Shown: one piece after another, positions 268-18,146 of the stretch
How the letters are laid out: each line of letters opens with the position of its first letter
Numbering within the stretch: the first letter of the stretch is position 1
DNA from: a virus
Lineage: Duplodnaviria; Heunggongvirae; Uroviricota; Caudoviricetes
DNA length: 23,475 bases
Reading direction: 5' to 3' (one strand)
Virus record (IMG/VR): IMGVR_UViG_2529293249_000015
Location: 1 to 23,475 of that record
Position numbers and translations under genes: made by a program
The notes under the pieces: generated by a model
What the model saw: the letters and a program-made list of their open reading frames with translations, nothing else
Told to the model about the DNA's origin: nothing
Database searches by the model: none

Positions 268-300
268 AAGCCCTCGCGTTGAGGGCTTTACTGATTTTTT
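268..300 (+). terminator. hairpin plus T-run between convergent grxA and ybjM
   Basis: 8-bp stem (aagccctc / gagggctt) with 5-nt loop at 268..288, followed by a T-rich stretch ending in TTTTTT at 295..300; lies between the 3' ends of convergent genes. Confidence 0.4.
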
Positions 301-665
301 CTGTGCTGTGGTTTAAACAAACTACTGATAAATAAGAAACACAGTGCCCCCAGCGCACACCAGAACACCGCGCTTAGTAACCATGCCAGCTCTTGCCAGA
401 ATGAGCGCGTCGGTGAAAAAAACAGCCGCATAATGAGCATCGAACAGGGTGCCGCCAGCATTGCGCCAAACAGAGGTTTCAGGACTTCTCTACGCTGTGA
501 AAAGAAGCTGGCGACTGCTCCAGGAAGAATGAAAAATAGCAAGCCGATTTCAGGATGCCCGGCAGCCCGAAAAGCGCCTTTCATGTGCGTCGCCAGAAAA
601 AGGCACACCACAATGAAGAGGACAAAACAGCAGATTGCCCCCGCCCAACGTTGTTTATGTTTCAC
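288..665 (-). CDS. ybjM: inner membrane protein YbjM
   Basis: 125-aa hydrophobic ORF, N-terminus MKHKQRWAGAICCF, in the expected position between grxA and ybjL. Confidence 0.8.
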   Translation of the reverse strand: MKHKQRWAGAICCFVLFIVVCLFLATHMKGAFRAAGHPEIGLLFFILPGAVASFFSQRREVLKPLFGAMLAAPCSMLIMRLFFSPTRSFWQELAWLLSAVFWCALGALCFLFISSLFKPQHRKNQ

Positions 666-934
666 TCGTTCCTCCTGACACTGCGTCTATCGAACACATT
701 TTTCGCCAGTGTGGCGTTCAGTAAGATAAAGCCGCTTCGCATTCCATGCTAATATAGGCCAACGCAATTCATATAGCCGTTGATACCTAATGTGATTACA
801 CTAGTAAAATATATTGTTACTTTACTATCGTTTAGGTGCGCTGAATGAATCTGCGCCCTGAATTCTGGTAAAAAACATTATCGTAAATTACCATTTCTTT
901 CAACAGCTTACTAGTAAACAAGAAGTTAGCCTCC

Positions 935-2620
935 GTGAATATAAACGTCGCCGAATTGTTAAATGGGAATTACATTCTGTTATTATTTGTGGTCCTCGCG
1001 CTTGGGCTATGTCTCGGAAAGTTACGACTTGGTTCGATCCAACTGGGTAATTCCATTGGCGTTTTAGTCGTATCGCTGTTATTAGGCCAACAACATTTCA
1101 GCATTAACACCGATGCGCTTAATCTTGGCTTTATGCTGTTTATTTTCTGCGTCGGGGTCGAAGCCGGACCGAACTTTTTTTCCATTTTTTTTCGCGATGG
1201 GAAAAATTACCTAATGTTAGCACTGGTGATGGTTGGCAGTGCGCTGGTGATCGCCTTAGGGTTAGGTAAGCTGTTTGGCTGGGATATTGGCCTGACGGCC
1301 GGTATGTTAGCAGGCTCTATGACGTCGACACCGGTTCTGGTCGGTGCTGGCGATACACTGCGTCATTCCGGCATGGAAAGCAGGCAGCTCTCACTGGCAC
1401 TGGATAATCTGAGCCTCGGGTATGCCTTAACCTATTTAATCGGTCTGGTGAGTTTGATTGTTGGTGCGCGTTACTTGCCGAAATTGCAGCATCAGGACTT
1501 ACAGACCAGCGCCCAGCAAATCGCCCGCGAACGTGGCCTGGACACTGATGCCAACCGTAAGGTTTATTTACCGGTGATCCGCGCCTATCGCGTCGGCCCG
1601 GAGCTGGTGGCCTGGACCGACGGCAAAAATCTGCGTGAACTGGGTATTTATCGACAAACCGGCTGCTACATTGAACGTATTCGACGTAACGGGATTCTGG
1701 CAAATCCAGACGGTGATGCCGTGCTACAAATGGGCGATGAAATAGCGTTGGTAGGCTATCCCGACGCCCATGCCCGACTCGATCCCAGCTTCCGTAACGG
1801 TAAAGAAGTTTTCGATCGTGACCTTCTCGACATGCGTATCGTCACTGAAGAAGTGGTCGTTAAAAACCATAACGCTGTAGGTAAACGTCTCGCACAACTG
1901 AAGTTGACCGATCACGGTTGCTTCCTTAACCGCGTCATTCGTAGCCAGATTGAGATGCCGATAGATGACAACGTCGTGCTTAACAAAGGTGACGTTTTAC
2001 AAGTCAGCGGTGATGCCCGTCGCGTAAAAACCATCGCCGATCGCATCGGCTTTATCTCGATTCACAGCCAGGTCACTGACCTGCTGGCATTTTGCGCCTT
2101 CTTTGTTATTGGGCTGATGATCGGGATGATCACCTTCCAGTTCAGCACATTCAGTTTCGGCATGGGGAACGCTGCCGGGTTGTTATTCGCCGGAATTATG
2201 CTGGGCTTTATGCGTGCTAACCACCCGACCTTCGGTTACATTCCGCAAGGTGCATTAAGCATGGTGAAAGAGTTCGGCTTGATGGTGTTTATGGCAGGCG
2301 TTGGTCTGAGCGCCGGTAGCGGTATTAATAACGGCCTGGGCGCGATTGGCGGTCAGATGTTGATTGCCGGATTAATTGTCAGTCTTGTGCCCGTGGTTAT
2401 CTGTTTCTTGTTCGGTGCTTATGTATTGCGAATGAACCGCGCACTGTTGTTCGGCGCAATGATGGGCGCACGCACCTGCGCGCCGGCAATGGAGATCATC
2501 AGTGATACAGCTCGCAGTAACATCCCTGCGCTGGGCTACGCGGGCACCTACGCAATCGCCAACGTCCTGCTGACGCTGGCAGGGACAATCATCGTCATGG
2601 TATGGCCAGGATTAGGATAA
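935..2620 (+). CDS. ybjL: putative AAE-family transporter YbjL
   Basis: 561-aa polytopic membrane ORF with GTG start ([20 protein letters not shown]), central soluble TrkA-C-like region, matching YbjL in length and N-terminus. Confidence 0.85.
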
Positions 2621-2732
2621 AACTGAAGTTGCCCTGAAAATGAAATTTTTTTGCACAACCGCAGAACTTTTCCGCAGGGCATCAGTCTTAATTAGTGCCA
2701 CTGCTTTTCTTTGATGTCCCCATTTTGTGGAG

Positions 2733-2775
2733 CCCATCAACCCCGCCATTTCGGTTCAAGGTTGATGGGTTTTTT
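2733..2775 (+). terminator. intrinsic terminator-like hairpin downstream of ybjL
   Basis: Perfect 10-bp stem cccatcaacc (2733..2742) / ggttgatggg (2760..2769), 17-nt loop, followed by TTTTTT (2770..2775). Confidence 0.5.
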
Positions 2776-2855
2776 GTTGCCTGAAATTTATGCCTTTTAA
2801 AATCATGATGTTAGAAGCAGTGTTTTTTAACGATGGCGACAAATTGGCGGCAGAG

Positions 2856-3074
2856 TCAAAGAGAGAGCGCCACCTGTCCTGATTTCATTGGATGCGGCTG
2901 AACCGGATTTGACTCTTTTGGCGTTGCAATCGAACGAACAAAAGTTTCATGGGTAACAAAAGTATGGCTGCAGTTAATGTTCTGGCACTGGTTGTAACGC
3001 TCTTTGGTCAATGAAGATACCTGAAAACTGCTGCGAGTATGGGCGGCACTTCCACACAGTGGGCAAATCATCAT
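2856..3074 (-). CDS. ogr: Ogr-family zinc-finger late transcription activator
   Basis: About 72 aa from MMICPLCGSAAHTRSS with C-x2-C ... C-x4-C pattern (CPLC ... CQNINC), resembling P2 Ogr; located directly after D as in P2. The tracked ORF extends 11 codons upstream; I take the MMICPLC start. Confidence 0.85.
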   Translation of the reverse strand: MMICPLCGSAAHTRSSFQVSSLTKERYNQCQNINCSHTFVTHETFVRSIATPKESNPVQPHPMKSGQVALSL

Positions 3075-3164
3075 TTTTCGAGTTCTCCTCATTTTTGCTA
3101 AATTCACAATAATGATACCGCATTATTCCATTTTGAAAACTTAAAAGTTCTCCATTGCGAAGAA

Positions 3165-4265
3165 TCATTCAATTTCGAAATCATCAATCTTCACTTCAAG
3201 CTCCAGACTGGTCGTAAAACCGTTATCCGGGCTGACAGTATGCGTCAGGGTGGTAATGGTCCATTCCGCATCATCTATCGGCTGTTTAAAGCCACTGACC
3301 TTCACAGGCATTTCCGTGTAGAGATCTGCCCGACCTTCTGCCAGTTGTAGCGAGAATGACGCAACGCCGCGTTGCAGGCGTTCCCACTGCATTTTCGCCG
3401 CTCGTTCGGCGTTGCTCCGGTTGGCATAAGTGCGATTAAGTACCAGCACGTTTTCATCCGTACCCACCAGGTAATCGCCCTGCTTCGCTTCCGGCTCTTT
3501 CTTCTGCTTCTTAGTCCTGCGCTTACGCTTCACCGTGGTGCTTTCTTTCTTCTCGGGTTCGCGGGTATGCAACCAGCTGGCAATTACGCCCGTGTAGGCT
3601 CCGCGATCTGCCAGGGTAAAGCGGTGACTGTCGCCGTCCTTGCGTGTGATAGTGATAACCGGTAGTGGTTTACCGCTGGCGCTTTTGCCCTGTCCCTGCC
3701 GAATGAATAACAGATTGCCATTTTTCACCGACGCAATAGCACCGTACTGGCGCGCCAGCCGCATCAAAAAACTGCCGTCACTTTCATTGGTCTGGTCTAT
3801 ATGATCCACGGGTTTATTCGACAGGTCTTTACCCAGTGCCATCTTCAGTTTGTGCCGCGCGGCTATTTCCTTCACCACTTCCCCGACTGTGGTCTTGTGC
3901 CACGACTTTTCACGGCGGGTATTCAGCGTTTCACGAAAATCAGCACTTCGCGCCCGGATAGTCAGGCGATCCGGCGCGCCAGTGTGTTCAATCTCGTCCA
4001 CCGTGAATGCCCCTTTCGGGAAAAGCGGCTGCCCCTTCCAGCCCAGCGCCAGCGTAATGACCGCACCACGGCGCGGCAGCGCGATTTTTCTGTCGGCGTC
4101 GTCCAGTTCCAGATCAAGCTGGTCTGCTTCAAAGCCCCGGTTATCCGTCAACGTCAGCCCCATCAGGCGGTTGTCCAGCACAGTGGTGATATCCCTGCCC
4201 TCAATACTGATGCTGAATGCCGGAGTTTTGTTGCCTTTCTTAAGCAGTTCAGAGCTGAAATTCAC
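3165..4265 (-). CDS. D: tail protein D (late control gene D homologue)
   Basis: 366-aa ORF, GTG start overlapping the U stop; position and size match P2 gpD. Confidence 0.85.
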   Translation of the reverse strand: MNFSSELLKKGNKTPAFSISIEGRDITTVLDNRLMGLTLTDNRGFEADQLDLELDDADRKIALPRRGAVITLALGWKGQPLFPKGAFTVDEIEHTGAPDRLTIRARSADFRETLNTRREKSWHKTTVGEVVKEIAARHKLKMALGKDLSNKPVDHIDQTNESDGSFLMRLARQYGAIASVKNGNLLFIRQGQGKSASGKPLPVITITRKDGDSHRFTLADRGAYTGVIASWLHTREPEKKESTTVKRKRRTKKQKKEPEAKQGDYLVGTDENVLVLNRTYANRSNAERAAKMQWERLQRGVASFSLQLAEGRADLYTEMPVKVSGFKQPIDDAEWTITTLTHTVSPDNGFTTSLELEVKIDDFEIE

Positions 4266-4747
4266 GACAGCAGCCCTCCCACCGTTTTACTGATATCACT
4301 TAAGGCAGATGTTGCCGTGTCCTGCAGATTATTCAGTTGCGTACTGAGATCACCGAACATATCGGACAGGGATTCATCCACCCGTTTGAGCGACAGGGTG
4401 AACTCAATCCGGCGCGGCATACCGTCGCGGAAAAACTCCGTTTTAGACTGATTTAGTCCCTCAATCACATACATGCCGTAAATCGTGCCGCTGCCTTCAA
4501 TCAGAGGCCATGCTTTCCCCTGTTCTGCCATCTGCTCCAGTGCCAGCAACGACAGCCTGCCGCCTGTTATCTCCGGCATAAGAACACCAGAAAGCGTCAG
4601 CATGTCATTGTCCGGTCCCAGAAACTGCGTTGACGGGCGTCGGTTAACCCGGCTGTTAGCCGCATGTCGCCAGCTGCGCTGATACTGCAGCTCCTGATAC
4701 GGCACGGTGCGCAGCATAAACACGTACAATCCCAGCACCATCATCAT
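4262..4747 (-). CDS. U: tail protein U
   Basis: 161-aa ORF (MMMVLGLYVFMLRTVPYQELQYQRSWRH) resembling P2 gpU; start overlaps the T stop. Confidence 0.9.
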   Translation of the reverse strand: MMMVLGLYVFMLRTVPYQELQYQRSWRHAANSRVNRRPSTQFLGPDNDMLTLSGVLMPEITGGRLSLLALEQMAEQGKAWPLIEGSGTIYGMYVIEGLNQSKTEFFRDGMPRRIEFTLSLKRVDESLSDMFGDLSTQLNNLQDTATSALSDISKTVGGLLS

Positions 4748-7700
4748 GCGTCGTATCCCCCCTGATCGCTGTAGTTACTCCTGGCTTTTGCCTTCAGCCT
4801 GCGTTCACGTTCATCAAGCTGGCGGGCCACCTCCCGCGCAATATCCTGCGCACTTTGTCCTGGCTGCGTCTGAATGATGATCTGCGTCGGTGCCTCAATC
4901 CGTTGAACGGGCGGCACAGCAGCTGCGCGACTCACCATCGCTTCACCGCCTTTCGCGGGAAGCGCCAAAGGATGCAACGGTGGAAGCTCTACTGGCGCGG
5001 CAGCAACGCCCATCATTCCGGCAACAACGGCAGCCAGTGCAGCTGTATTTCTCCGGCTGGTCACATTTGCCGGGCCGTTAACAATTTCCGGCCCGTTTTC
5101 ACCGACGATGCCAAACTGCCCGCGCGGGATATACCCGCCGCTGTCATACATCCCCGCAAAGCCATATCCCCATGACGGAAAACCACCTGATGGCATCATC
5201 ACTTTGCCGTCTGCATTCACTGTTGCGGGTTGCTGACGCGTCACGCTTTCCGGCAGTTTCGCCTTTGCAGCCTCTTTACTGATAATGCCGAGTTTCTCCA
5301 GCAACCAGGAAACGCCGGATTTCAGGGAGTCCAGCGGATGCATGACCATATTCAGCCCTTCCGCCAGTGCCTCCCCGAATCGTCGCCCCATTGCCGCTGC
5401 GCTCTGCAGTTCGGCAGAGGTCGACTTAACGGGCGTCAGCAGATCAGTAAACCAGCCCCACAGCGCCTGCACTTTGTCGCCAATCCACTGGAACACGGGC
5501 TTAAGCGGTTCGAACGCTGCACTGATGGGACCTGCCGCCGCTTTGAATCCTTCCACCACGCCACCGAGAAATGCGGTGATGGGTTGCCAGTATTTCCAGA
5601 CAACCAGCGCCACGCCCGCCAGTGCAGTAACCACAAGACCTATCGGACTGAGCAGAGCACCTAACAGACCAGATATGGCATACAGGGCAACGCGCAGCAT
5701 CGCCAGTGGACCAGATGCCAGTACTCGCAGCACCGTGCCTGCGGCGGCCAGTCCACCGCGCAGTACCGCCAGAGGATTCATAAACATCACAGCAACAGCA
5801 CGTAAACCGGATAATCCAGACTGCAAAAGTGCAACCGGCGCACCTGCTACAGTTTTCAGGACATTTCCCGTCAGTGATGCCGTGCGGCGCAAAGACGACA
5901 ACGGCGCAGTAAGTAAACCTGCGGCGTTGCCCGATGAAGCAAGCCCGCGTCGCAGCAGTGCCAGTGGTGCGCCAGCCAGCCAGGACAACGCGCTGCTGGT
6001 TCGAGTTACTGCTGCCGTAACGGAAGATAACGTTTTGATACCCAACACAGAGAATCCCAGACGGATCACTGCCAGCGGCCCCAGCACTGCAGCCAGCGCC
6101 ACCGCTAAGGTGCCGAGGCCGACGGTAACCGCAGCCACAACAGCCGATGCTTTCATCAGTGTGCCTGTCAGTTCCGGGTTAGCTTCCACCCAGCGACGCA
6201 ACGCCCCCGTGACGCTTTTCACCGTGTACAGAATATCCATCAGCGGCTGGCGCAGCGTTTCGCCCAGGCTGCTGAAGGTGTTCTGCGCTCCGGTTTTAAC
6301 CAGCAACCACTGCGCAGAAAGTGAATCCTTGTTAATGTCGGATTCTTTCTGCATGGAGCCAAGCGCATCATTGCCCGCTGTCAGTTTTAACTGACGCTGC
6401 AGTTCCGGCAGGTTGTTTGCCAGTTTCGCCGCGTCATCGCCAAACTCTTTACCAAACAACATAGTCATGGCAGACAGGCGCTTGTCCTGCGGCAGCGCGT
6501 TTACCTTCTCCAGCACGCGCTGGATAGTTCCCATCGCATCCTTCGTCATCTGCTTTTCAATCACTTCAGGATTGAGTTTCAGCAGATTCATCCCTTCAAA
6601 GAAACTCTTGCTTTGCATGGTGGCAATGGACAATTCACGCACCATCGCGTTTGCTGCACTGGCTGCAACCTCTGGCGCAGCGCCCAGTGTCAGGAAGGTG
6701 GAACCCAGCGCCGCCGCTTTACGATAATCCAGACGGTCAGCCACACCGCCCAGACGTTGCATCACATCAATGATGTCTGCCCCTTTCGACATGGCGTTAT
6801 CATCCAGATAGTTCAGCGCATCACCGAGCTGTTCAATATTGCGGGTGGGGATTTTGTAGAGCTGGGCGATTTTCCCCAGACTTTCTGACAGTTCATCCGC
6901 TGGCAGCTCAAAGGCTGTTGCCGCCTTTGCTGCCGTACTGGCGAAGGCCAGCAGGTCACGTTTCTGATCTTCCCAGCTGTCGTCAGGGTTTGCGACGTTC
7001 ATGCGCGCACCACCTTCAACCAGTGCAGCGAAGTCCACCGCACCGTTTTCCATCGGCAACTGTTCGCTGGCAGCCTTGATGGCATCCTGCATTTCATAAA
7101 AACGTGCAGTGCGGTTGCCATTATCGTCACGCAGACCATTGACCTGCTTTGCCACACCTTTCATGGCATCTTCCATGCTGGTATAGCTTTTTACTGCCGC
7201 CATCACTGGCGCACCCATTGCCAGCCCTGCAGCCGTGGTGGTGGCTCCGGCACCTGCAATACGATCACGCACCTCCAGCGAACGGGCATAACTGGCACGC
7301 GCTGCATTCATCCTACGCTGAGCTTCCCCCAGTCGCTTCAGCCGCGCCTCCTGTTTCGAAAGTTCCTGGTTATAACGTGATGTTTCACGGGCTAAACGGG
7401 CAGTTGCTCCCGCATCGTCTTTCGCAGAAATTCCCGCCCGGTACAGTTCAGCACGCACTAGCGCCGTCTGCTGCTGCAGCTTTTTCTGGCGTTCTTCCAG
7501 GCGCTGAACAGCCAGCCGTTGACGGCCCAGAGCAACAACCTGACGTTGCGAAGGCGGCCCCATCGCTCCCAGTTCCTGACTGAGCAAATTTGCACGCTGG
7601 CGGGCATAGTTCAGCCTGTCGCCTAATTTCTGATTTTCTGCCTGCAGCTTTCGGAAGCTGTCCAGACTGCTCCCGGCCTGATCAAGCTGCTTTATTGCAT

Positions 7701-7821
7701 CGCGGGATTTTTTGACAGCAGCAGCCAGTTCTCTTGAACTGGCCTGCGCAGATCGAAATGGGCGGGTGAGCTTGTCAACCGCATTAAGAATGACCTGCAG
7801 ACGCAGGTTGTTATCACTCAT
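4744..7821 (-). CDS. T: tail tape measure protein
   Basis: 1025-aa ORF with coiled-coil-like N-terminal third, hydrophobic Ala/Leu/Gly-rich repeat block and Gly-rich C-terminus; directly downstream of E/E'. Confidence 0.9.
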   Translation of the reverse strand: MSDNNLRLQVILNAVDKLTRPFRSAQASSRELAAAVKKSRDAIKQLDQAGSSLDSFRKLQAENQKLGDRLNYARQRANLLSQELGAMGPPSQRQVVALGRQRLAVQRLEERQKKLQQQTALVRAELYRAGISAKDDAGATARLARETSRYNQELSKQEARLKRLGEAQRRMNAARASYARSLEVRDRIAGAGATTTAAGLAMGAPVMAAVKSYTSMEDAMKGVAKQVNGLRDDNGNRTARFYEMQDAIKAASEQLPMENGAVDFAALVEGGARMNVANPDDSWEDQKRDLLAFASTAAKAATAFELPADELSESLGKIAQLYKIPTRNIEQLGDALNYLDDNAMSKGADIIDVMQRLGGVADRLDYRKAAALGSTFLTLGAAPEVAASAANAMVRELSIATMQSKSFFEGMNLLKLNPEVIEKQMTKDAMGTIQRVLEKVNALPQDKRLSAMTMLFGKEFGDDAAKLANNLPELQRQLKLTAGNDALGSMQKESDINKDSLSAQWLLVKTGAQNTFSSLGETLRQPLMDILYTVKSVTGALRRWVEANPELTGTLMKASAVVAAVTVGLGTLAVALAAVLGPLAVIRLGFSVLGIKTLSSVTAAVTRTSSALSWLAGAPLALLRRGLASSGNAAGLLTAPLSSLRRTASLTGNVLKTVAGAPVALLQSGLSGLRAVAVMFMNPLAVLRGGLAAAGTVLRVLASGPLAMLRVALYAISGLLGALLSPIGLVVTALAGVALVVWKYWQPITAFLGGVVEGFKAAAGPISAAFEPLKPVFQWIGDKVQALWGWFTDLLTPVKSTSAELQSAAAMGRRFGEALAEGLNMVMHPLDSLKSGVSWLLEKLGIISKEAAKAKLPESVTRQQPATVNADGKVMMPSGGFPSWGYGFAGMYDSGGYIPRGQFGIVGENGPEIVNGPANVTSRRNTAALAAVVAGMMGVAAAPVELPPLHPLALPAKGGEAMVSRAAAVPPVQRIEAPTQIIIQTQPGQSAQDIAREVARQLDERERRLKAKARSNYSDQGGYDA

Positions 7822-8250
7822 CGTTGGCCCCGCTTCTCTGAATCGCTTTATACCGCCATTCCAGCACTTCGGTCAGCGGCATAACGTCAGTAACGGATGG
7901 CGGCCAGTGAAAAATGGTGGCGATATCTGCCACCAGATCGTCAACCGTCAGGCTGTCGGTAAAACGGCAAGCACCGACTTCTTCAACAAAAAAGTGACAA
8001 CCTCAACCGACATGGCAGTGAGATCTGCCGGGTCCATCTCTGCAATTTCCTGTGCAGTCAGTGCCGGACTGGAGATGCGGGGGATCACGGTCATCATCGC
8101 GTTTACATCCATATCCATAATGGCCTGCAGGCGTGTACCGCGCAGCGCACCGGACTGCGGTTTACGCAGCACAATTTCGGTGATTTCTGTTTTACCGCGC
8201 TTGATGGGGGTATCCAGTTGAATGGTCTTTTCAGTCTGCTTATCGCTCAT
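7815..8250 (-). CDS. E: tail assembly chaperone E+E' (product of programmed -1 frameshift)
   Basis: A -1 shift at T_TTT_TTG (complement of 7987..7993) opens a frame that I translated by hand to ...VEEVGACRFTDSL...RSGANDE and that ends at TGA (complement 7815..7817), overlapping the T start codon. Confidence 0.65.
7948..8250 (-). CDS. E: tail assembly chaperone E
   Basis: 100-aa ORF immediately upstream of T in the P2 gpE position; contains the slippery heptamer near its 3' end. Confidence 0.85.
   Translation of the reverse strand: MSDKQTEKTIQLDTPIKRGKTEITEIVLRKPQSGALRGTRLQAIMDMDVNAMMTVIPRISSPALTAQEIAEMDPADLTAMSVEVVTFLLKKSVLAVLPTA
7987..7993 (-). other. slippery heptamer T_TTT_TTG for E/E' -1 frameshift
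   Basis: Minus-strand sequence ACT TTT TTG TTG in the E frame; the same heptamer type used by P2 E/E' and the lambda G/GT family. Confidence 0.65.
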
Positions 8251-8304: not shown

Positions 8305-8820
8305 TCAGAGGCCGAGGGCGTTGCGGTGCGCTTCCATCAGGTCCACACCGTCCACAATTTCCACCATGTTGATAAGGTCCACTTCATAGAGCACCTCACC
8401 ATTGATGGTCAGCTTCGCGTAGCTGTTGGTACTGGTCACTTTGGTGGTGTTGCTTTCGCCCGTCTTCCACTCGCCGGAATCCACTTCTTTGTGACGTCCA
8501 CGCACGACAAGCTCCACGGCCTGCACTTCCCCGGTATCGTCACGCTGAATAGAGCCGGTAAAGCGCAGCTGGATGCCATCCACCGTGGCTTTACCCATCT
8601 GTTTAAACAGCAGCAATTCAGTACCACCAATGGAAAATTCTGTGTCCAGCGCACTGTCATCAAGCCCCAGATCCACATCCACCGCACCCGGCATTCCGCC
8701 GCCGCGATACTTCTCATATTTGCGGGTAAATTTCGGCAGCGTCAGCGACTCAACGATCCCCTGCCAGTTGTTCCCGTCGTTAAACAGGTTCAGGTGTTTT
8801 AATTTGCGTGGTAAAGCCAT
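8305..8820 (-). CDS. FII: tail tube protein FII
   Basis: 171-aa ORF (MALPRKLKHLNLFNDGNNWQGIVE) resembling P2 gpFII; downstream of the sheath gene. Confidence 0.9.
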   Translation of the reverse strand: MALPRKLKHLNLFNDGNNWQGIVESLTLPKFTRKYEKYRGGGMPGAVDVDLGLDDSALDTEFSIGGTELLLFKQMGKATVDGIQLRFTGSIQRDDTGEVQAVELVVRGRHKEVDSGEWKTGESNTTKVTSTNSYAKLTINGEVLYEVDLINMVEIVDGVDLMEAHRNALGL

Positions 8821-10144: not shown

Positions 10145-10711
10145 TCAGGGGGATTCATTACTCTTATTTGCCGGAAATTTTCTATAAATTGTGGAAACAC
10201 CCACATCAAAAATCAGTGCAATACGCTGTCTTGATTCTCCGCCCTCGAGTAAGCGTCCAATCTGTGCCCACTGTTCGGTGGTCAACTTAGGACGGCGTCC
10301 ACCTACTCTGCCTTTATCACGAGCTGCAGCCAGCCCCGCCCTGGTACGTTCAACTATCAGTTCGCGTTCCATTTCAGCTAGGGCCCCCATGACATGAAAA
10401 AAGAAACGGCCCATTGGGGTGCTGGTATCAATACTGTCAGTCAGGCTTCGGAAATTCACGCCACACTGACGCAACTCTTCTATCAGCGTAACAAGATGCC
10501 GCATACTGCGCCCCAACCTGTCCAGCTTCCAGACAACCAGAGTGTCTCCTGCCGATAGTGTCCTGAGCAGTTTTTTAAGCCCCGGTCTGTCGGACTTAGT
10601 GCCACTGATTTTATCCTCAAAAATCCGCTCACATCCCGCGCAGTTCAGTGCATTACGTTGCAAATCGGTGTTCTGGTCATTTGTTGACACGCGTACATAG
10701 CCAATAAGCAT
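10145..10711 (-). CDS. serine-recombinase DNA invertase (Gin/Hin/Cin/Pin family)
   Basis: 188 aa from MLIGYVRVSTNDQNTDLQRNAL with catalytic Ser motif and C-terminal helix-turn-helix; near-identical in stretches to Gin/Hin. The tracked ORF has a 15-codon upstream extension; the ATG at 10711 has an RBS. Confidence 0.9.
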   Translation of the reverse strand: MLIGYVRVSTNDQNTDLQRNALNCAGCERIFEDKISGTKSDRPGLKKLLRTLSAGDTLVVWKLDRLGRSMRHLVTLIEELRQCGVNFRSLTDSIDTSTPMGRFFFHVMGALAEMERELIVERTRAGLAAARDKGRVGGRRPKLTTEQWAQIGRLLEGGESRQRIALIFDVGVSTIYRKFPANKSNESP

Positions 10712-10778
10712 GATCAATCCCCTGAATAAAAACCGTGGATGATGCCAGTTAGCCATTATCTCTGCATTTTCATAAACG

Positions 10779-10809
10779 TTGGTTTGGGAGAAGCGGCAAA
10801 ACGGAATGT
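10779..10809. repeat. left inverted repeat of invertible segment (recombination site)
   Basis: 31-bp sequence ttggtttgggagaagcggcaaaacggaatgt, a perfect reverse-complement match to 12293..12323. Confidence 0.8.
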
Positions 10810-11134
10810 GGGAACAGGTTCAGGTCAGATACCGGATATGAGTAGCTTTGCATCAGCACTCTCTTCGAGTGGCTACCAGAAATTACCTTCTGGACTAATT
10901 ATTCAGTGGGGGGCGGCTGTTGCTGGAATTGGCAGCACTGGGGGTACAGGAAATGTAGTCTCATTCCCTGTTGCATTCCCCAGATATTGCGCCCAAATAA
11001 TTACATCTTACGATAATGGAAGCTCGTCAATCATTGCTGGTGCAGCAGGAAACCAAACTACCACTCAATTTCTTTTACGTTGTGGTGCAACCGGTGGTAG
11101 TTATAACTTCCGCTGGTTAGCCGTGGGGTATTAA
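10781..11134 (+). other. alternative tail-fibre C-terminal (receptor-binding) cassette, currently unexpressed orientation
   Basis: Begins in frame at the repeat with GLGEAAKRNVG, the same residues found at the H crossover point, and continues as a different fibre tip (...QIPDMSSFASALSSSGYQKLPSGLIIQWG...). Confidence 0.7.
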
Positions 11135-11136
11135 TT

Positions 11137-11580
11137 ATGGATAACTACTATTTTTCACCTTCGACTTTGGCATTTTATCCTGAAGATCTCATGTTGTTAT
11201 ATGAAGCAGCAGGAACTTTACCTGATGATATTATTTCTGTGCCACATGAAATATTTGCTACTTATTCAGGAGAGCCACCACGAGGAAAAAAGCGAGGTAC
11301 TACAGAAGATGGGCAGCCCACCTGGAGTAATCTGCCGCCTTTAAGTCATGAGGAAGAAGTTGAGGTTGCGGACGCCCAAAGACAGTTTCGTATTGATGAG
11401 GCGAACGACTACATGAATAGTAAGCAATGGCCAGGTAAAGCCGCTATTGGTCGTCTGAAAGGCGAGGAACTGGCGCAATATAATTCGTGGCTGGATTATC
11501 TGGACGCACTGGAGCTGGTCGATACTTCCGGTGCGCCAGATATTGAATGGCCTACACCTCCGGTAACTCAGGCCAGCTAA
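11137..11580 (+). CDS. tail-fibre assembly protein, alternative-orientation copy
   Basis: 147-aa ORF ending in the conserved tail-fibre-assembly motif VDTSGAPDIEWPTPP; follows the alternative fibre tip. Confidence 0.8.
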   Translation: MDNYYFSPSTLAFYPEDLMLLYEAAGTLPDDIISVPHEIFATYSGEPPRGKKRGTTEDGQPTWSNLPPLSHEEEVEVADAQRQFRIDEANDYMNSKQWPGKAAIGRLKGEELAQYNSWLDYLDALELVDTSGAPDIEWPTPPVTQAS

Positions 11581-11947
11581 TCTCAGGAGCCGTCGAAGTG
11601 TCGACGGCTTTTACTTCTTTTTTGTAGTCCATCCAGGCAGATAGTTTTTCTTTATCTGTACTGCTGATATCACCAAGCATTAATTCCACCCGCCAGTCAG
11701 CTGTGACATTATCGGCATGAGCAAGTAACTGCATTCGCTGATTTTCAGCACGTGCGACATAATCAATCGCCGGAGATTTCAGTACCGGTAAACCATTTTC
11801 ATCTGACGTGATTAATTTCCCCCCTTCCTGCTGTCCGGCAATTAATTCATTGTATAAGTCTGTACTTATCTCAACAATGTCAGCAGACATGTCGCTGTTT
11901 ATACCATCAAAGAAAAAACCATTAGTCGATTTTGAGAAATAAATCAT
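11552..11947 (-). CDS. tail-fibre assembly protein, active-orientation copy (P2 G position)
   Basis: 131 aa from MIYFSKSTNGFFFDG, ending in VDTSTAPEISWPELP; starts just after the H stop; overlaps the opposite assembly gene by 29 bp at the 3' ends. Confidence 0.8.
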   Translation of the reverse strand: MIYFSKSTNGFFFDGINSDMSADIVEISTDLYNELIAGQQEGGKLITSDENGLPVLKSPAIDYVARAENQRMQLLAHADNVTADWRVELMLGDISSTDKEKLSAWMDYKKEVKAVDTSTAPEISWPELPEV

Positions 11948-11955
11948 AGATATAC

Positions 11956-13371
11956 CTATACACCGATTGCTACCCAAAAACAGGACCTTTCATATTTGAC
12001 AATTTCTCCCTGAGATATACCGCCAACAATTATATAGAACTGTGATTTGCTGATATCAGAACAGTTCGCTATGCCCATTGCAGATATACCAGCCACCGAC
12101 GTTGTATGTGGCACAGCCAACAGCGCAAGTGAACGATTTGGGAATGTTACCGGGTAAGTCACCGTATAGTTTGATGCTCCACTGACAATACCCCACTGAA
12201 TAATCAGACCTGAAGGGAGTTTTTGAAACCCCGTTGATGAAAGTGAACTGGCAAACGCCGCCATATCCGGAATTTGGTTTTGCTCGTTACCTACATTCCG
12301 TTTTGCCGCTTCTCCCAAACCAAGGTATGTGAGAAGACCAGTTACATCCTTTCCACTCAAATTAGTCAGCGTATTGTCCAGCGGTTGTTTACCTGCCAGT
12401 GCATTAAGCATTGTCGTGGCAAAGTTCGGGTCATTCCCCAGCGCCGCCGCCAGTTCGTTCAGTGTATCCAGTGCCGCAGGTGCAGAACCCACCATTGCCG
12501 CAATCGCCGATTTCACAAATGCCGTGGTGGCAATTTGTGTATTGTTGACCGACTGTGCCGCAGTAGGTGCGGTTGGCGTTCCGGTGAGTGCCGGACTCGA
12601 CAGCGGCGCTTTCAGTGCCAGCGCATTGTTAATGGTGGTACTGAATTTCGGATCATTGTTAATGGCTGCGGCTATTTCTTTCAGCGTGTCCAGCGTGGCT
12701 GGCGCACCATTAATAAGGGCCGTCAGTGCCGCCTGTACAAACGCAGTGGTCGCAACCTGCGTGGTATTATTCCCCGCCGCTGGCGTTGGCGCTTTGGGGG
12801 TTCCGGTAAATGTCGGGCTGGCTTTTGGCGCGTACTGTGAATGCGGGTCCGGTGCGGCAAGATGTTTTGCCATCTGATCATCCGCGTACACCTTCAGCTC
12901 CAGTGCCTTGTCATCCACATACTTGCGGGTTGCCAGCACTACAGCAGGGTCGATTTTCAGGGTGATATTGTCCGTGCTGCTGGTAATCAGCACCATGCGC
13001 ACGGTCTGAGTGCGCCCGCTACCTTCAGCCAGTTGCGGCTTATAGCTTTCCGGGCAGTTGCCCACGGCAATCAATGCCCCGGACTCATCAAACAAGCCCA
13101 CTTCACGTATCCACCAACCGCCCTCGTTTTCAGGGATCACCTGTTCGGCAATAATCTGGCTGCTGTTCTGCGGGTCGATATAAAGCATATTCAGCGCAGC
13201 CCGGCGTTTCTCATTTACCAGTGCCGTCTGCTTTGCGTCCGGCGTTGGCAATACTCCACCGCCATCGCCCACCGCCATATGGGTAATTTTTAGCGGCACA
13301 CCGAGCGCGGCGGCGCTGGCAAGTTTCGCCGCGCCAATATCCGTCAGCAGGGTATAAAATTTTGTGCTCAT
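11956..13371 (-). CDS. H: tail fibre protein H
   Basis: 471-aa ORF with P2 gpH-like N-terminus (MSTKFYTLLTDIGAAKLASAAALGVP); the C-terminal 122 aa lie inside the invertible segment. Confidence 0.9.
   Translation of the reverse strand: MSTKFYTLLTDIGAAKLASAAALGVPLKITHMAVGDGGGVLPTPDAKQTALVNEKRRAALNMLYIDPQNSSQIIAEQVIPENEGGWWIREVGLFDESGALIAVGNCPESYKPQLAEGSGRTQTVRMVLITSSTDNITLKIDPAVVLATRKYVDDKALELKVYADDQMAKHLAAPDPHSQYAPKASPTFTGTPKAPTPAAGNNTTQVATTAFVQAALTALINGAPATLDTLKEIAAAINNDPKFSTTINNALALKAPLSSPALTGTPTAPTAAQSVNNTQIATTAFVKSAIAAMVGSAPAALDTLNELAAALGNDPNFATTMLNALAGKQPLDNTLTNLSGKDVTGLLTYLGLGEAAKRNVGNEQNQIPDMAAFASSLSSTGFQKLPSGLIIQWGIVSGASNYTVTYPVTFPNRSLALLAVPHTTSVAGISAMGIANCSDISKSQFYIIVGGISQGEIVKYERSCFWVAIGV
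12293..12323. repeat. right inverted repeat of invertible segment (recombination site, inside H)
   Basis: Reverse complement is identical to 10779..10809; encodes GLGEAAKRNVG in the H frame. Confidence 0.8.
12382..12816 (-). repeat. tandem duplication of a roughly 70-aa module within H
   Basis: Two adjacent units, TGTPKAPTPAAGNNTTQVATTAFVQAALTALINGAPATLDTLKEIAAAINNDPKFSTTINNALALKAP and TGTPTAPTAAQSVNNTQIATTAFVKSAIAAMVGSAPAALDTLNELAAALGNDPNFATTMLNALAGKQP. Confidence 0.6.
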
Positions 13372-16734: not shown

Positions 16735-16987
16735 TGTTTCGCTCCTGACACGCAATAATCATGTCCACTTTGTCTGCACAGACCGCCCAGGCGGCCTCCG
16801 TTTCATCCAGCAATGCGTTCAGATCACCGTTATTGTGTGGCGCTGCCTGATCCAGCTGACACGGCGTCACTCGCGGACAACCACTGACGGTAAGCTGCAC
16901 CTCCGGTGAGTGCCGGACGTTCCCGCAGCCGGATAATGTCAGCAGGCAAAGGAGTATCAGCCCAGCGGCGTAAATCCTCGTTCTCAC
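16697..16987 (-). CDS. lysC: LysC, outer-membrane lipoprotein spanin (Rz1-like), nested in lysB
   Basis: 96-aa ORF with lipoprotein signal and lipobox LTLSGC, Pro-rich mature region; starts inside lysB in another frame and ends overlapping the R start. Confidence 0.7.
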   Translation of the reverse strand: MRTRIYAAGLILLCLLTLSGCGNVRHSPEVQLTVSGCPRVTPCQLDQAAPHNNGDLNALLDETEAAWAVCADKVDMIIACQERNSEQTTIPAPRPQ

Positions 16988-17258
16988 GTTTCAGTTCCTC
17001 AATCCGGCGTTGTCGTTGTCTCAGCAGTGCACTGGTCTGTTCTGCTTCGGCATAGAGCCGCGCCTGCTCCCGGTTGTTAGTTTCAGTCAGAATGGACAGG
17101 CTGATAAGCTGGTTGTTGCTCTTTGCCAGCGCCTGGCTTTTGCTCTGCAGCTCGTCTGCCTGCGTGCTGATGGTCTGGCTGGCATCAGCCAGCCGCCACG
17201 TCTGCCAGCCCAGCGCCGTCAGTAATAACGCCAGCACACCCAGCAGCAACCGGTTCAT
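16830..17258 (-). CDS. lysB: LysB, inner-membrane spanin (Rz-like)
   Basis: 142-aa ORF: N-terminal transmembrane helix (LLLGVLALLLTALGW) then coiled-coil-like charged region; start overlaps the lysA stop. Confidence 0.8.
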   Translation of the reverse strand: MNRLLLGVLALLLTALGWQTWRLADASQTISTQADELQSKSQALAKSNNQLISLSILTETNNREQARLYAEAEQTSALLRQRQRRIEELKRENEDLRRWADTPLPADIIRLRERPALTGGAAYRQWLSASDAVSAGSGSATQ

Positions 17259-17632
17259 GCTGCTACCTGTTGCGCCATCTGATTACGGGTGATCCAGAAG
17301 GCAATAACGGTCAGTAGATAAAAGACCAGGGTAATAGCCCACTCCGTCCAGGCGAGACTTACGACAATCAGCAATCGCATCACCCAGCTGATAAATACGT
17401 TTTCTTTTCGGGTAATTGTCTTCAGCAAAGATGCCCTCAACTCCTGCCAGAGCGGGCCATTCTTAATTAACGCAGCCAGTGCTACCGGAATTACCGCCCA
17501 TGTCAGCAAACAGGCTACCCAAACGCCGGACGCTGCCAGTACCGGAAAAATCCCCTGCGGATACACCATTGCGGCGATTAACAGCGCCATCCATAACATC
17601 AGAAACAGCCCGCTGATTAATTTCTTTTTCAT
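17255..17632 (-). CDS. lysA: LysA-like membrane protein (lysis timing)
   Basis: 125 aa from MKKKLISGLFLMLWMALLIAAM with about four predicted transmembrane helices; the ATG at 17632 has an RBS and follows the endolysin stop. A longer upstream start at 17704 is possible. Confidence 0.6.
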   Translation of the reverse strand: MKKKLISGLFLMLWMALLIAAMVYPQGIFPVLAASGVWVACLLTWAVIPVALAALIKNGPLWQELRASLLKTITRKENVFISWVMRLLIVVSLAWTEWAITLVFYLLTVIAFWITRNQMAQQVAA

Positions 17633-17633
17633 T

Positions 17634-18146
17634 TCAGTTTGCTCCCTGTAAACACCAGGCCATCTCCCGCGCACGGCGGTTATCCAGCCCCTGATTAAAC
17701 ACACCTTTTACATAAACCCAGCGCGGCAACTGTCGGCACGCATCCGCCCAGCGCCGCTGATTGAGTAATTTCACCAGCGTGGAACTGCAGGCATTGCCCG
17801 TTCCCACGTTGAAGGCAAACGACACCGCAGCGTCATATACCTTCTGCGGCGGCTGTTGTTTCACACACCTTTCCAGCGCCCGCTCCACACGCAGCACGTT
17901 GGAAATCAGTCCTTCTGCTGCCTGTCGTTCCGTAATGGTTTTGCCGGGAATGACGCCTGACGTGTTACCAATGCCGTCGGTCCAGACGCCCGCGCTGCAC
18001 TGATACGGCTGCAGACGACAGCCTTCGTAATCGGCAATCAGTTTCAGCCCCTCCACGGAGGTGTGAAGCTGCTGAAACCCCGGCAGCGTGGCAGCAATAG
18101 CCAGCACGGCCCCGACAAGGCAGCGTTTAACGATTGATGGATTCAT
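17634..18146 (-). CDS. SAR (signal-anchor-release) endolysin, T4-lysozyme fold (P2 K position)
   Basis: 170-aa ORF; N-terminal weakly hydrophobic Ala/Gly-rich helix (CLVGAVLAIAATLPGF) then YEGCRLQPYQCSAGVWTDGIGNT, closely resembling P1 Lyz / phage 21 R type lysozymes. Confidence 0.85.
   Translation of the reverse strand: MNPSIVKRCLVGAVLAIAATLPGFQQLHTSVEGLKLIADYEGCRLQPYQCSAGVWTDGIGNTSGVIPGKTITERQAAEGLISNVLRVERALERCVKQQPPQKVYDAAVSFAFNVGTGNACSSTLVKLLNQRRWADACRQLPRWVYVKGVFNQGLDNRRAREMAWCLQGAN

Follow-up and report, generated by a model that had tools for sequence, protein, structure and literature searches.

A probable programmed -1 ribosomal frameshift of the P2 E/E+E' type in the tail genes of a Fels-2-like prophage

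How is the open frame that follows gene E of a P2-like phage translated, when it is offset by -1 from E and ends inside the tape-measure gene? We addressed this question in a window of 23,475 nucleotides (the whole stretch of DNA analysed), which is a Fels-2-type, P2-like prophage (Felsduovirus) adjoining ybjM/ybjL of an E. coli-like chromosome. By Pfam matches, its late genes are, in window order, D, U, T, E and FII, then FI, then an invertase with an invertible fibre segment, followed by H, I, J, W and V, by S and R, by the lysis genes and by L, M, N and O; none of the neighbouring late genes is disrupted. Gene E sits between the tube gene FII and the tape-measure gene T on the minus strand, within an FI-FII-E-T-U-D operon in which Pfam recognizes sheath, tube, tape measure, gpU and gpD in this order, the tape measure being of the TP901 type. 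The three genes that frame the question are:

8305..8820, minus strand: gene FII, tail tube protein, directly upstream of E (PF04985 Phage_tube, 8.8e-60)
7948..8250, minus strand: gene E, the zero-frame product, from ATG at 8250 to the stop TGA 7950..7948, 100 aa, a homologue of P2 gpE
4744..7821, minus strand: gene T, tail tape measure protein, 1025 aa (TIGR01760, 1.3e-92; PF10145; phrog_28, 3.5e-198)

In the -1 frame relative to E there is a stop at 8005..8003, and the frame is open from 8002. Since E itself ends at 7948, a slip from one frame into the other must fall within the 55-nt window 8002..7948, and the sole XXXYYYZ heptamer in that interval is T_TTT_TTG at 7993..7987. The initial annotation had placed this heptamer in the E frame at complement 7987..7993, and recomputing the phase gave the same result: the E-frame codons are ACT TTT TTG, so that TTTTTTG stands in the X_XXY_YYZ phase required for tandem tRNA slippage. 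After re-pairing, the -1 frame begins GTT GAA GAA and runs for 57 sense codons to the TGA at 7816..7814; the frame had been described as open for about 58 codons, which is correct as to the open frame and one codon too many unless the stop is counted. The predicted fusion comprises 88 + 57 = 145 aa, the length of roughly 145 aa proposed earlier, and its predicted junction peptide is ...VVTFLVEEVGACR. The elements of the predicted recoding are as follows:

7987..7993, minus strand: slippery heptamer T_TTT_TTG, read ACT TTT TTG (7995..7987) in the E frame
7814..7987, minus strand: E' segment in the -1 frame, which starts with GTT at 7987 and has 57 codons and the stop TGA 7816..7814
7814..8250, minus strand: composite E+E' coding region for the 145-aa predicted fusion, with G7987 read twice
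7948..7986, minus strand: dual-coding stretch holding the C-terminal tail of E and the N-terminal part of E', with depressed diversity at all three codon positions

The far end of this feature had been set at 7815; the location holds, and the end moves to 7814. The ATG of T occupies 7821..7819, 2 nt upstream of the E' stop codon, and the E' TGA lies within ATGAGTGA. The two frames share 8 nt, which bears out the overlap claimed between the E' stop and the start of T, with the refinement that, given the position of the T ATG, the stop falls in T codons 2-3 (ATG AGT GAt) and not on the ATG itself.

A slippery heptamer alone would be unconvincing, because gene D has a TTTTTTG in frame as well, at 3771. 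We estimated a chance baseline from the 22 plausible genes of the window, which amount to 6010 codons. The 14 in-frame XXXYYYZ heptamers found in these codons lead to an expectation of about 0.04 in an 18-codon stretch with both frames open, and a -1 frame open for at least 57 codons is met at just 3.9% of in-gene positions in the window. The -1 ORF that follows the second TTTTTTG, in gene D, is just 31 codons long. Judged from the DNA, the arrangement at E exceeds chance, and what is decisive is the homology and the conservation of the -1 frame, which show that this frame is coding.

The homology concerns both parts of the predicted fusion. E matches Pfam PF10109 (Phage_TAC_7, tail assembly chaperone E/41/14; 1.1e-18, 67.5 bits, cut-off 25) and phrog_103 (9.6e-44). 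The -1 extension E' matches Pfam PF06528 (Phage_P2_GpE; 2.9e-18, 65.5 bits, cut-off 23) over fusion residues 107-143, and phrog_1756 (1.8e-22) over E' residues 3-57, a match that begins upstream of any start codon. No NCBIfam model was found for E or E', and a profile search of the PDB returned no solved structure for E or E+E'. A tblastn search with the conceptual fusion matched 425 phage records, 388 of them over at least 80% of its length; in 56 of the 60 rows listed, the match came in two pieces.

We then compared 17 diverse P2-like lineages with gamma-, beta- and alphaproteobacterial hosts, namely the window and 16 others: Fels-2, RE-2010, P2, PSP3, phiCTX, KL3, a Mannheimia phage, a Vibrio phage, an Acidovorax phage, a Zymomonas element, ENT90, a Klebsiella phage, a Ralstonia phage, SEN4, Xuanwuvirus 503458 and a Burkholderia phage. 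As a check on the reconstruction, the same procedure applied to P2 yielded a 91-aa E and a 142-aa E+E', the published values (PMC3091744). In all 17 lineages E' is shifted by -1 with respect to E, and the overlap contains an in-phase XXXYYYZ heptamer. The heptamer is T_TTT_TTG in 13 of the 17, and the remainder carry T_TTT_TTC, T_TTT_TTT, G_GGA_AAG or A_AAT_TTT. Within E', residues D109, E128, W132, R133, A136 and R139 are invariant in 16 aligned fusions.

Close relatives were collected in a scan of IMG/VR that gave 80 sequences, 76 of them unique. Each of the 80 matches over 434 nt (3 x 145 - 1), with one exception of 440 nt that carries a 6-nt insertion. The T6 run is in phase in 76 of 76 unique relatives, and the run is followed by G in 69 of them and by A in 7. 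The synonymous third positions of the heptamer, 7993 and 7990, are invariant in all 76, whereas upstream only 7 of 85 third positions are. Nucleotide diversity upstream of the heptamer is highest at position 3 of the E frame (0.352 vs 0.113 and 0.060), and downstream of the E stop it is highest at position 3 of the -1 frame (0.247 vs 0.099 and 0.049); in the 39-nt dual-coding stretch it amounts to 0.098, 0.110 and 0.144 by codon position, compared with the upstream wobble value of 0.352. At the heptamer, the wobble variation among the 76 relatives thus passes from the E frame into the -1 frame, a pattern of substitutions that indicates purifying selection in the -1 frame. The initial annotation had called the site the conserved chaperone frameshift found upstream of tape-measure genes, and the PF10109 and PF06528 matches, the 17 of 17 lineages and the 76 of 76 relatives all agree with that description.

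Other ways of accounting for this open frame have to be weighed against a ribosomal frameshift. E' might be an independent small gene, started at GTG 7933 and encoding a 39-aa 'GpE family' protein, and the presence of the heptamer would then be incidental. A separate 39-aa E' is annotated by PGAP and in several phage records, and many lineages have an ATG or GTG at the codon homologous to GTG 7933. However, 4 of the 17 lineages have no ATG, GTG or TTG before the conserved E' motif, the homologous residue there being Trp, Ala or Ile, and on account of this missing start codon we rejected independent initiation of E' as a conserved mechanism. By eye, the 16 nt preceding GTG 7933 contain no evident SD-like sequence. 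Both the phrog_1756 homology and the conservation of the -1 frame reach back past the GTG to the heptamer, and the synonymous positions of the heptamer are invariant. In P2, moreover, E' has no ribosome-binding site and is synthesized as an extension of E, according to Christie et al. 2002 (J Bacteriol 184:6522) as cited in PMC3931495 and PMC3091744. We consider an independent E' gene very improbable. So, too, is it highly improbable that the fusion arises during transcription, by RNA polymerase slippage on the T6 run that adds one U, giving a U7 mRNA that encodes the fusion directly. Such slippage would use a homopolymer site and reach the same frame, with a product that differs by one residue (Phe88 for Leu88, +34 Da), and a T6 run could allow it at a low level; yet the run is held at exactly 6 in 76 of 76 relatives and is not lengthened, its codon phase is conserved, and six residues are short for the E. 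coli RNA polymerase. Efficient slippage by this enzyme typically needs 8-9 or more residues. The non-homopolymeric heptamers G_GGA_AAG and A_AAT_TTT of relatives also speak against it, as they fit tandem tRNA slippage and cannot support polymerase slippage.

The arrangement might finally be a coincidence, or the remnant of a decayed prophage with an unexpressed -1 ORF. That TTTTTTG also arises in frame in gene D is in keeping with coincidence, but the joint probability is small, and the -1 ORF, which Pfam matches strongly, is under purifying selection in its own frame. Also at odds with this reading are the intact neighbouring late genes and the presence of the 651-nt region around E, at 80% identity or more, in 999 of 5426 complete E. 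coli genomes. Many E. coli chromosomes carry this region at 100% identity; Escherichia phage 500465-1 matches it at 99.8%, and the DNA of Fels-2 at about 86%. Chance or decay is thus, in our view, extremely improbable. The locus very probably encodes a programmed -1 ribosomal frameshift of the P2 E/E+E' type, intact and ordinary.

If the ribosome slips at the heptamer, are there neighbouring elements that could stimulate it? Two candidates were found:

8000..8004, minus strand: SD-like GAGGT, candidate stimulator, 6 nt upstream of the heptamer
7955..7978, minus strand: candidate 6-bp hairpin GUCGGU...ACCGAC, beginning 8 nt after the heptamer, with 7978-7973 paired with 7960-7955

Folding of the RNA downstream of the heptamer had been suggested earlier as a check for a stimulatory structure, and it lent that structure no support. 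In the window, folding gave a z-score of -1.39 for a stretch of 114 nt and of -0.46 for one of 69 nt, and in 15 other lineages the scores ranged from -1.53 to +0.45, none of them significant. The RNAalifold consensus of 48 relatives was weak (-9.87 kcal/mol, with a covariation term of -0.69); in the same 48 relatives the GUCGGU/ACCGAC hairpin was paired in 91.7% of cells, with zero compensatory changes. Given these weak z-scores, the little covariation and a hairpin without compensatory pairs, we rejected a downstream stimulatory RNA structure. Upstream, the GAG of the SD-like GAGGT is invariant in 76 of 76 relatives, and anti-SD pairing upstream of the heptamer, by similar purine-rich motifs, stands above the positional background in 13 of 16 lineages (median rank 0.05). 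The significance of this pairing was lost once the amino-acid sequence was held fixed (synonymous codon resampling, Fisher p = 0.11), and because the signal vanishes in this way an upstream SD-like stimulator is unproven; the encoded residues account for the pairing in full. With neither a downstream structure nor an upstream SD supported, the efficiency of the slip is not predictable. We regard as unlikely the idea that the E frameshift of P2 and Fels-2 is tuned by undescribed cis elements, an SD-like GAGG(U/G) 6-7 nt upstream and, in the Fels-2 clade, the weak 6-bp hairpin 8 nt downstream. If this were true, phages could set differing E:E+E' ratios through the choice of amino acids at positions -4 to -2 ahead of the Phe-Leu slip site.

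The E/E+E' frameshift, by which P2-like phages obtain two tail-assembly chaperones of different length from a single start codon, is required for P2-type tail assembly, and P2 is the system with which the window is best compared. The two share T_TTT_TTG in the same codon phase, an E' of 57 codons in the -1 relation, the place between FII and T, and an 8-nt E'/T overlap through ATGAGTRA (in the P2 record E+E' ends at 819 and T starts at 812). The fusions have 48.9% protein identity over residues 7-145, as aligned by tblastn in two pieces. They differ in that E has 100 aa in the window vs 91 aa in P2 and the fusion 145 aa vs 142 aa; as the E of the window is longer, its dual-coding stretch after the heptamer comprises 12 codons vs 6. 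Neither P2 nor the window has a significant structure downstream, and P2-type sites have been described as devoid of a downstream stimulatory structure (PMC3091744). For P2 itself, the TTTTTTG site, the 91- and 142-aa products and an E' without a ribosome-binding site are on record (PMC3091744, PMC3931495), and literature cited in these two papers has the fusion as produced and essential for tail assembly. The P2 GenBank record AF063097 carries a 'site of -1 translational frameshift' feature, the PSP3 and KL3 records have joined CDSs for E+E', and the record of Fels-2, the nearest named relative, describes gpE+E' as formed by translational slippage. Fels-2 (STM2699/STM2697.1), RE-2010, SEN8 and Escherichia phage 500465-1 share with the window the 100-aa and 145-aa lengths, the heptamer and its context. 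Few substitutions separate the window from its Fels-2 relatives; one of them is that the codon after GAG is GTT in the window and not GTG, which weakens the SD-like match.

Comparison can be extended beyond the P2 group. Phage lambda slips at a G_GGA_AAG heptamer and has a siphovirus tail, unlike the contractile myovirus tail encoded in the window. The P2 and lambda proteins are stated to have no amino-acid similarity (PMC3931495). The likeness to lambda G/G-T (Levin et al. 1993), and to tailed phages in general (Xu, Hendrix & Duda 2004), lies in the pattern of two overlapping ORFs between the major tail or tube gene and the tape-measure gene, and in the logic by which a -1 slip at a low rate fixes the ratio of the products (PMC5009743). 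The window shows the features of this general pattern: overlapping ORFs, a position between the major tail gene and the tape-measure gene, and a -1 shift at a slippery sequence. The A_AAA_AAG of E. coli dnaX is likewise a homopolymeric X_XXY_YYZ site for tandem slippage; of the dnaX stimulators, an upstream SD and a downstream hairpin, neither is supported in the window, the second being a stable stem-loop 5-9 nt after the slippery site.

We propose the following course of events for this prophage. Ribosomes would initiate at the ATG at 8250, and most would stop at 7948 to give the 100-aa chaperone E, with a predicted mass of 10.9 kDa. In a minority, the tRNA-Phe on UUU in the P site and the tRNA-Leu on UUG in the A site would slip together on U_UUU_UUG, both re-pairing one base back on UUU_UUU; the GUU at 7987 would be read next, and translation would continue for 57 codons to the TGA 7816..7814, giving a 145-aa E+E' of about 16.1 kDa. 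That slippage takes place in this prophage, and how efficient it may be, we infer from homology and established knowledge; in P2, Christie and colleagues are reported to have found, in 2002, a frameshift efficiency of roughly 10%. The N-terminal domain common to E and E+E' may bind the tape-measure protein T and the E' domain may recruit the tube protein, while a fixed rate of slippage would set the E : E+E' ratio for tail assembly. Such a division of labour between the domains is suggested by analogy with lambda G/GT (Atkins et al. 2016, PMC5009743).

The frameshift described here is already known; it is a textbook recoding event, and biologically it is nothing new. The one practical point is a gap in annotation. 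PGAP gives the name 'phage tail assembly protein' to a sequence identical to E, and annotates the remainder as a gene of its own:

7814..7933, minus strand: 39-aa ORF with a GTG start at 7933, 'GpE family phage tail protein' (PGAP CDS L001 1918-2037)

The 100-aa fragment is on record for about 1000 contigs, as is the 39-aa one under the GpE family name, and a collection of about 15 billion proteins did not contain the exact 145-aa fusion. We regard the 39-aa 'GpE family' ORF as spurious, the product of automatic pipelines that split E+E'. The practical value of the finding therefore lies in annotation: for phages and prophages with Fels-2-like tails, a joined E+E' is preferable for proteomics, for structure prediction and for the engineering of tailocins or phages.

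Within the Fels-2 clade, the seventh base of the slippery heptamer at which E is predicted to shift into the -1 frame to yield the E+E' tail-chaperone fusion is not strictly fixed, since T_TTT_TTA replaces T_TTT_TTG in 7 of the 76 unique sequences compared among close relatives. In these seven loci, the A-site codon still encodes Leu, and the change alters the first E' codon at its first position. The variant heptamer is found at:

locus 1458-1464 in L047, L055, L069, L083, L086 and L087
locus 579-585 in L084

An SD-like sequence precedes the E heptamer:

8000-8004, minus strand, GAGGT, 6 nt ahead of that heptamer

The third base of its GAG is invariant (76/76 relatives), and similar motifs lie upstream of the slippery site in 13 of 16 diverse P2-like lineages. 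Codon resampling indicates that the encoded residues account for these motifs.

In-frame heptamers also lie in tail genes T and D:

4756-4762, minus strand, G_GGG_GGA, 4 codons before the stop of the tape-measure gene T
3765-3771, minus strand, second T_TTT_TTG, mid-gene inside gene D

The -1 frame at G_GGG_GGA is that of the next gene, U, and is open for 164 codons; this heptamer is probably a chance by-product of the way the T stop and the U start overlap in ATGA. The heptamer in gene D, where the -1 ORF spans only 31 codons, was taken as an internal control for the chance occurrence of such heptamers.

Elsewhere, the window carries an invertible host-range switch of the tail fibre (10145-13371), whose arrangement of invertase and fibre genes is of the known Gin/Cin/Pin type:

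10145-10756, minus strand, serine invertase (Resolvase + HTH_7)
10767-10812 and 12290-12335, 46-nt inverted repeats, 89% complementary, adjoining the invertase
10739-11134, plus strand, alternative fibre C-terminus, bracketed by the repeats
11137-11580, plus strand, assembly chaperone of the alternative fibre, likewise bracketed
11956-13371, minus strand, active fibre gene H, opposing the alternative C-terminus and chaperone
11552-11977, minus strand, chaperone of H, opposing the same pair

The junction of prophage and chromosome was observed at 288-3107:

288-665, minus strand, host gene ybjM
935-2620, plus strand, host gene for a ybjL-like Asp-Al_Ex/TrkA_C permease
2856-3107, minus strand, Ogr-like zinc-finger ORF (CPLCG...C..C), directly downstream of gene D, after the host genes

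No tRNA gene was found anywhere in the window, which places the att site within 2621-2855, an untranslated gap.

The stretch that separates the lysozyme gene from tail gene R holds:

16830-17704, minus strand, two ORFs of 142 aa and 149 aa

Neither has a meaningful Pfam match; judging by location, both probably serve lysis as accessory genes of lysA/lysB type.

As for how the chaperone products are annotated, PGAP and several phage submissions call E' as a separate 39-aa 'GpE family phage tail protein' (7814-7933, minus strand), a call present on about 1000 contigs, and the exact 145-aa E+E' fusion is absent from the collection of ~15 billion proteins searched. Together, the split E' calls and the missing fusion amount to a systematic annotation gap in Fels-2-like prophages.
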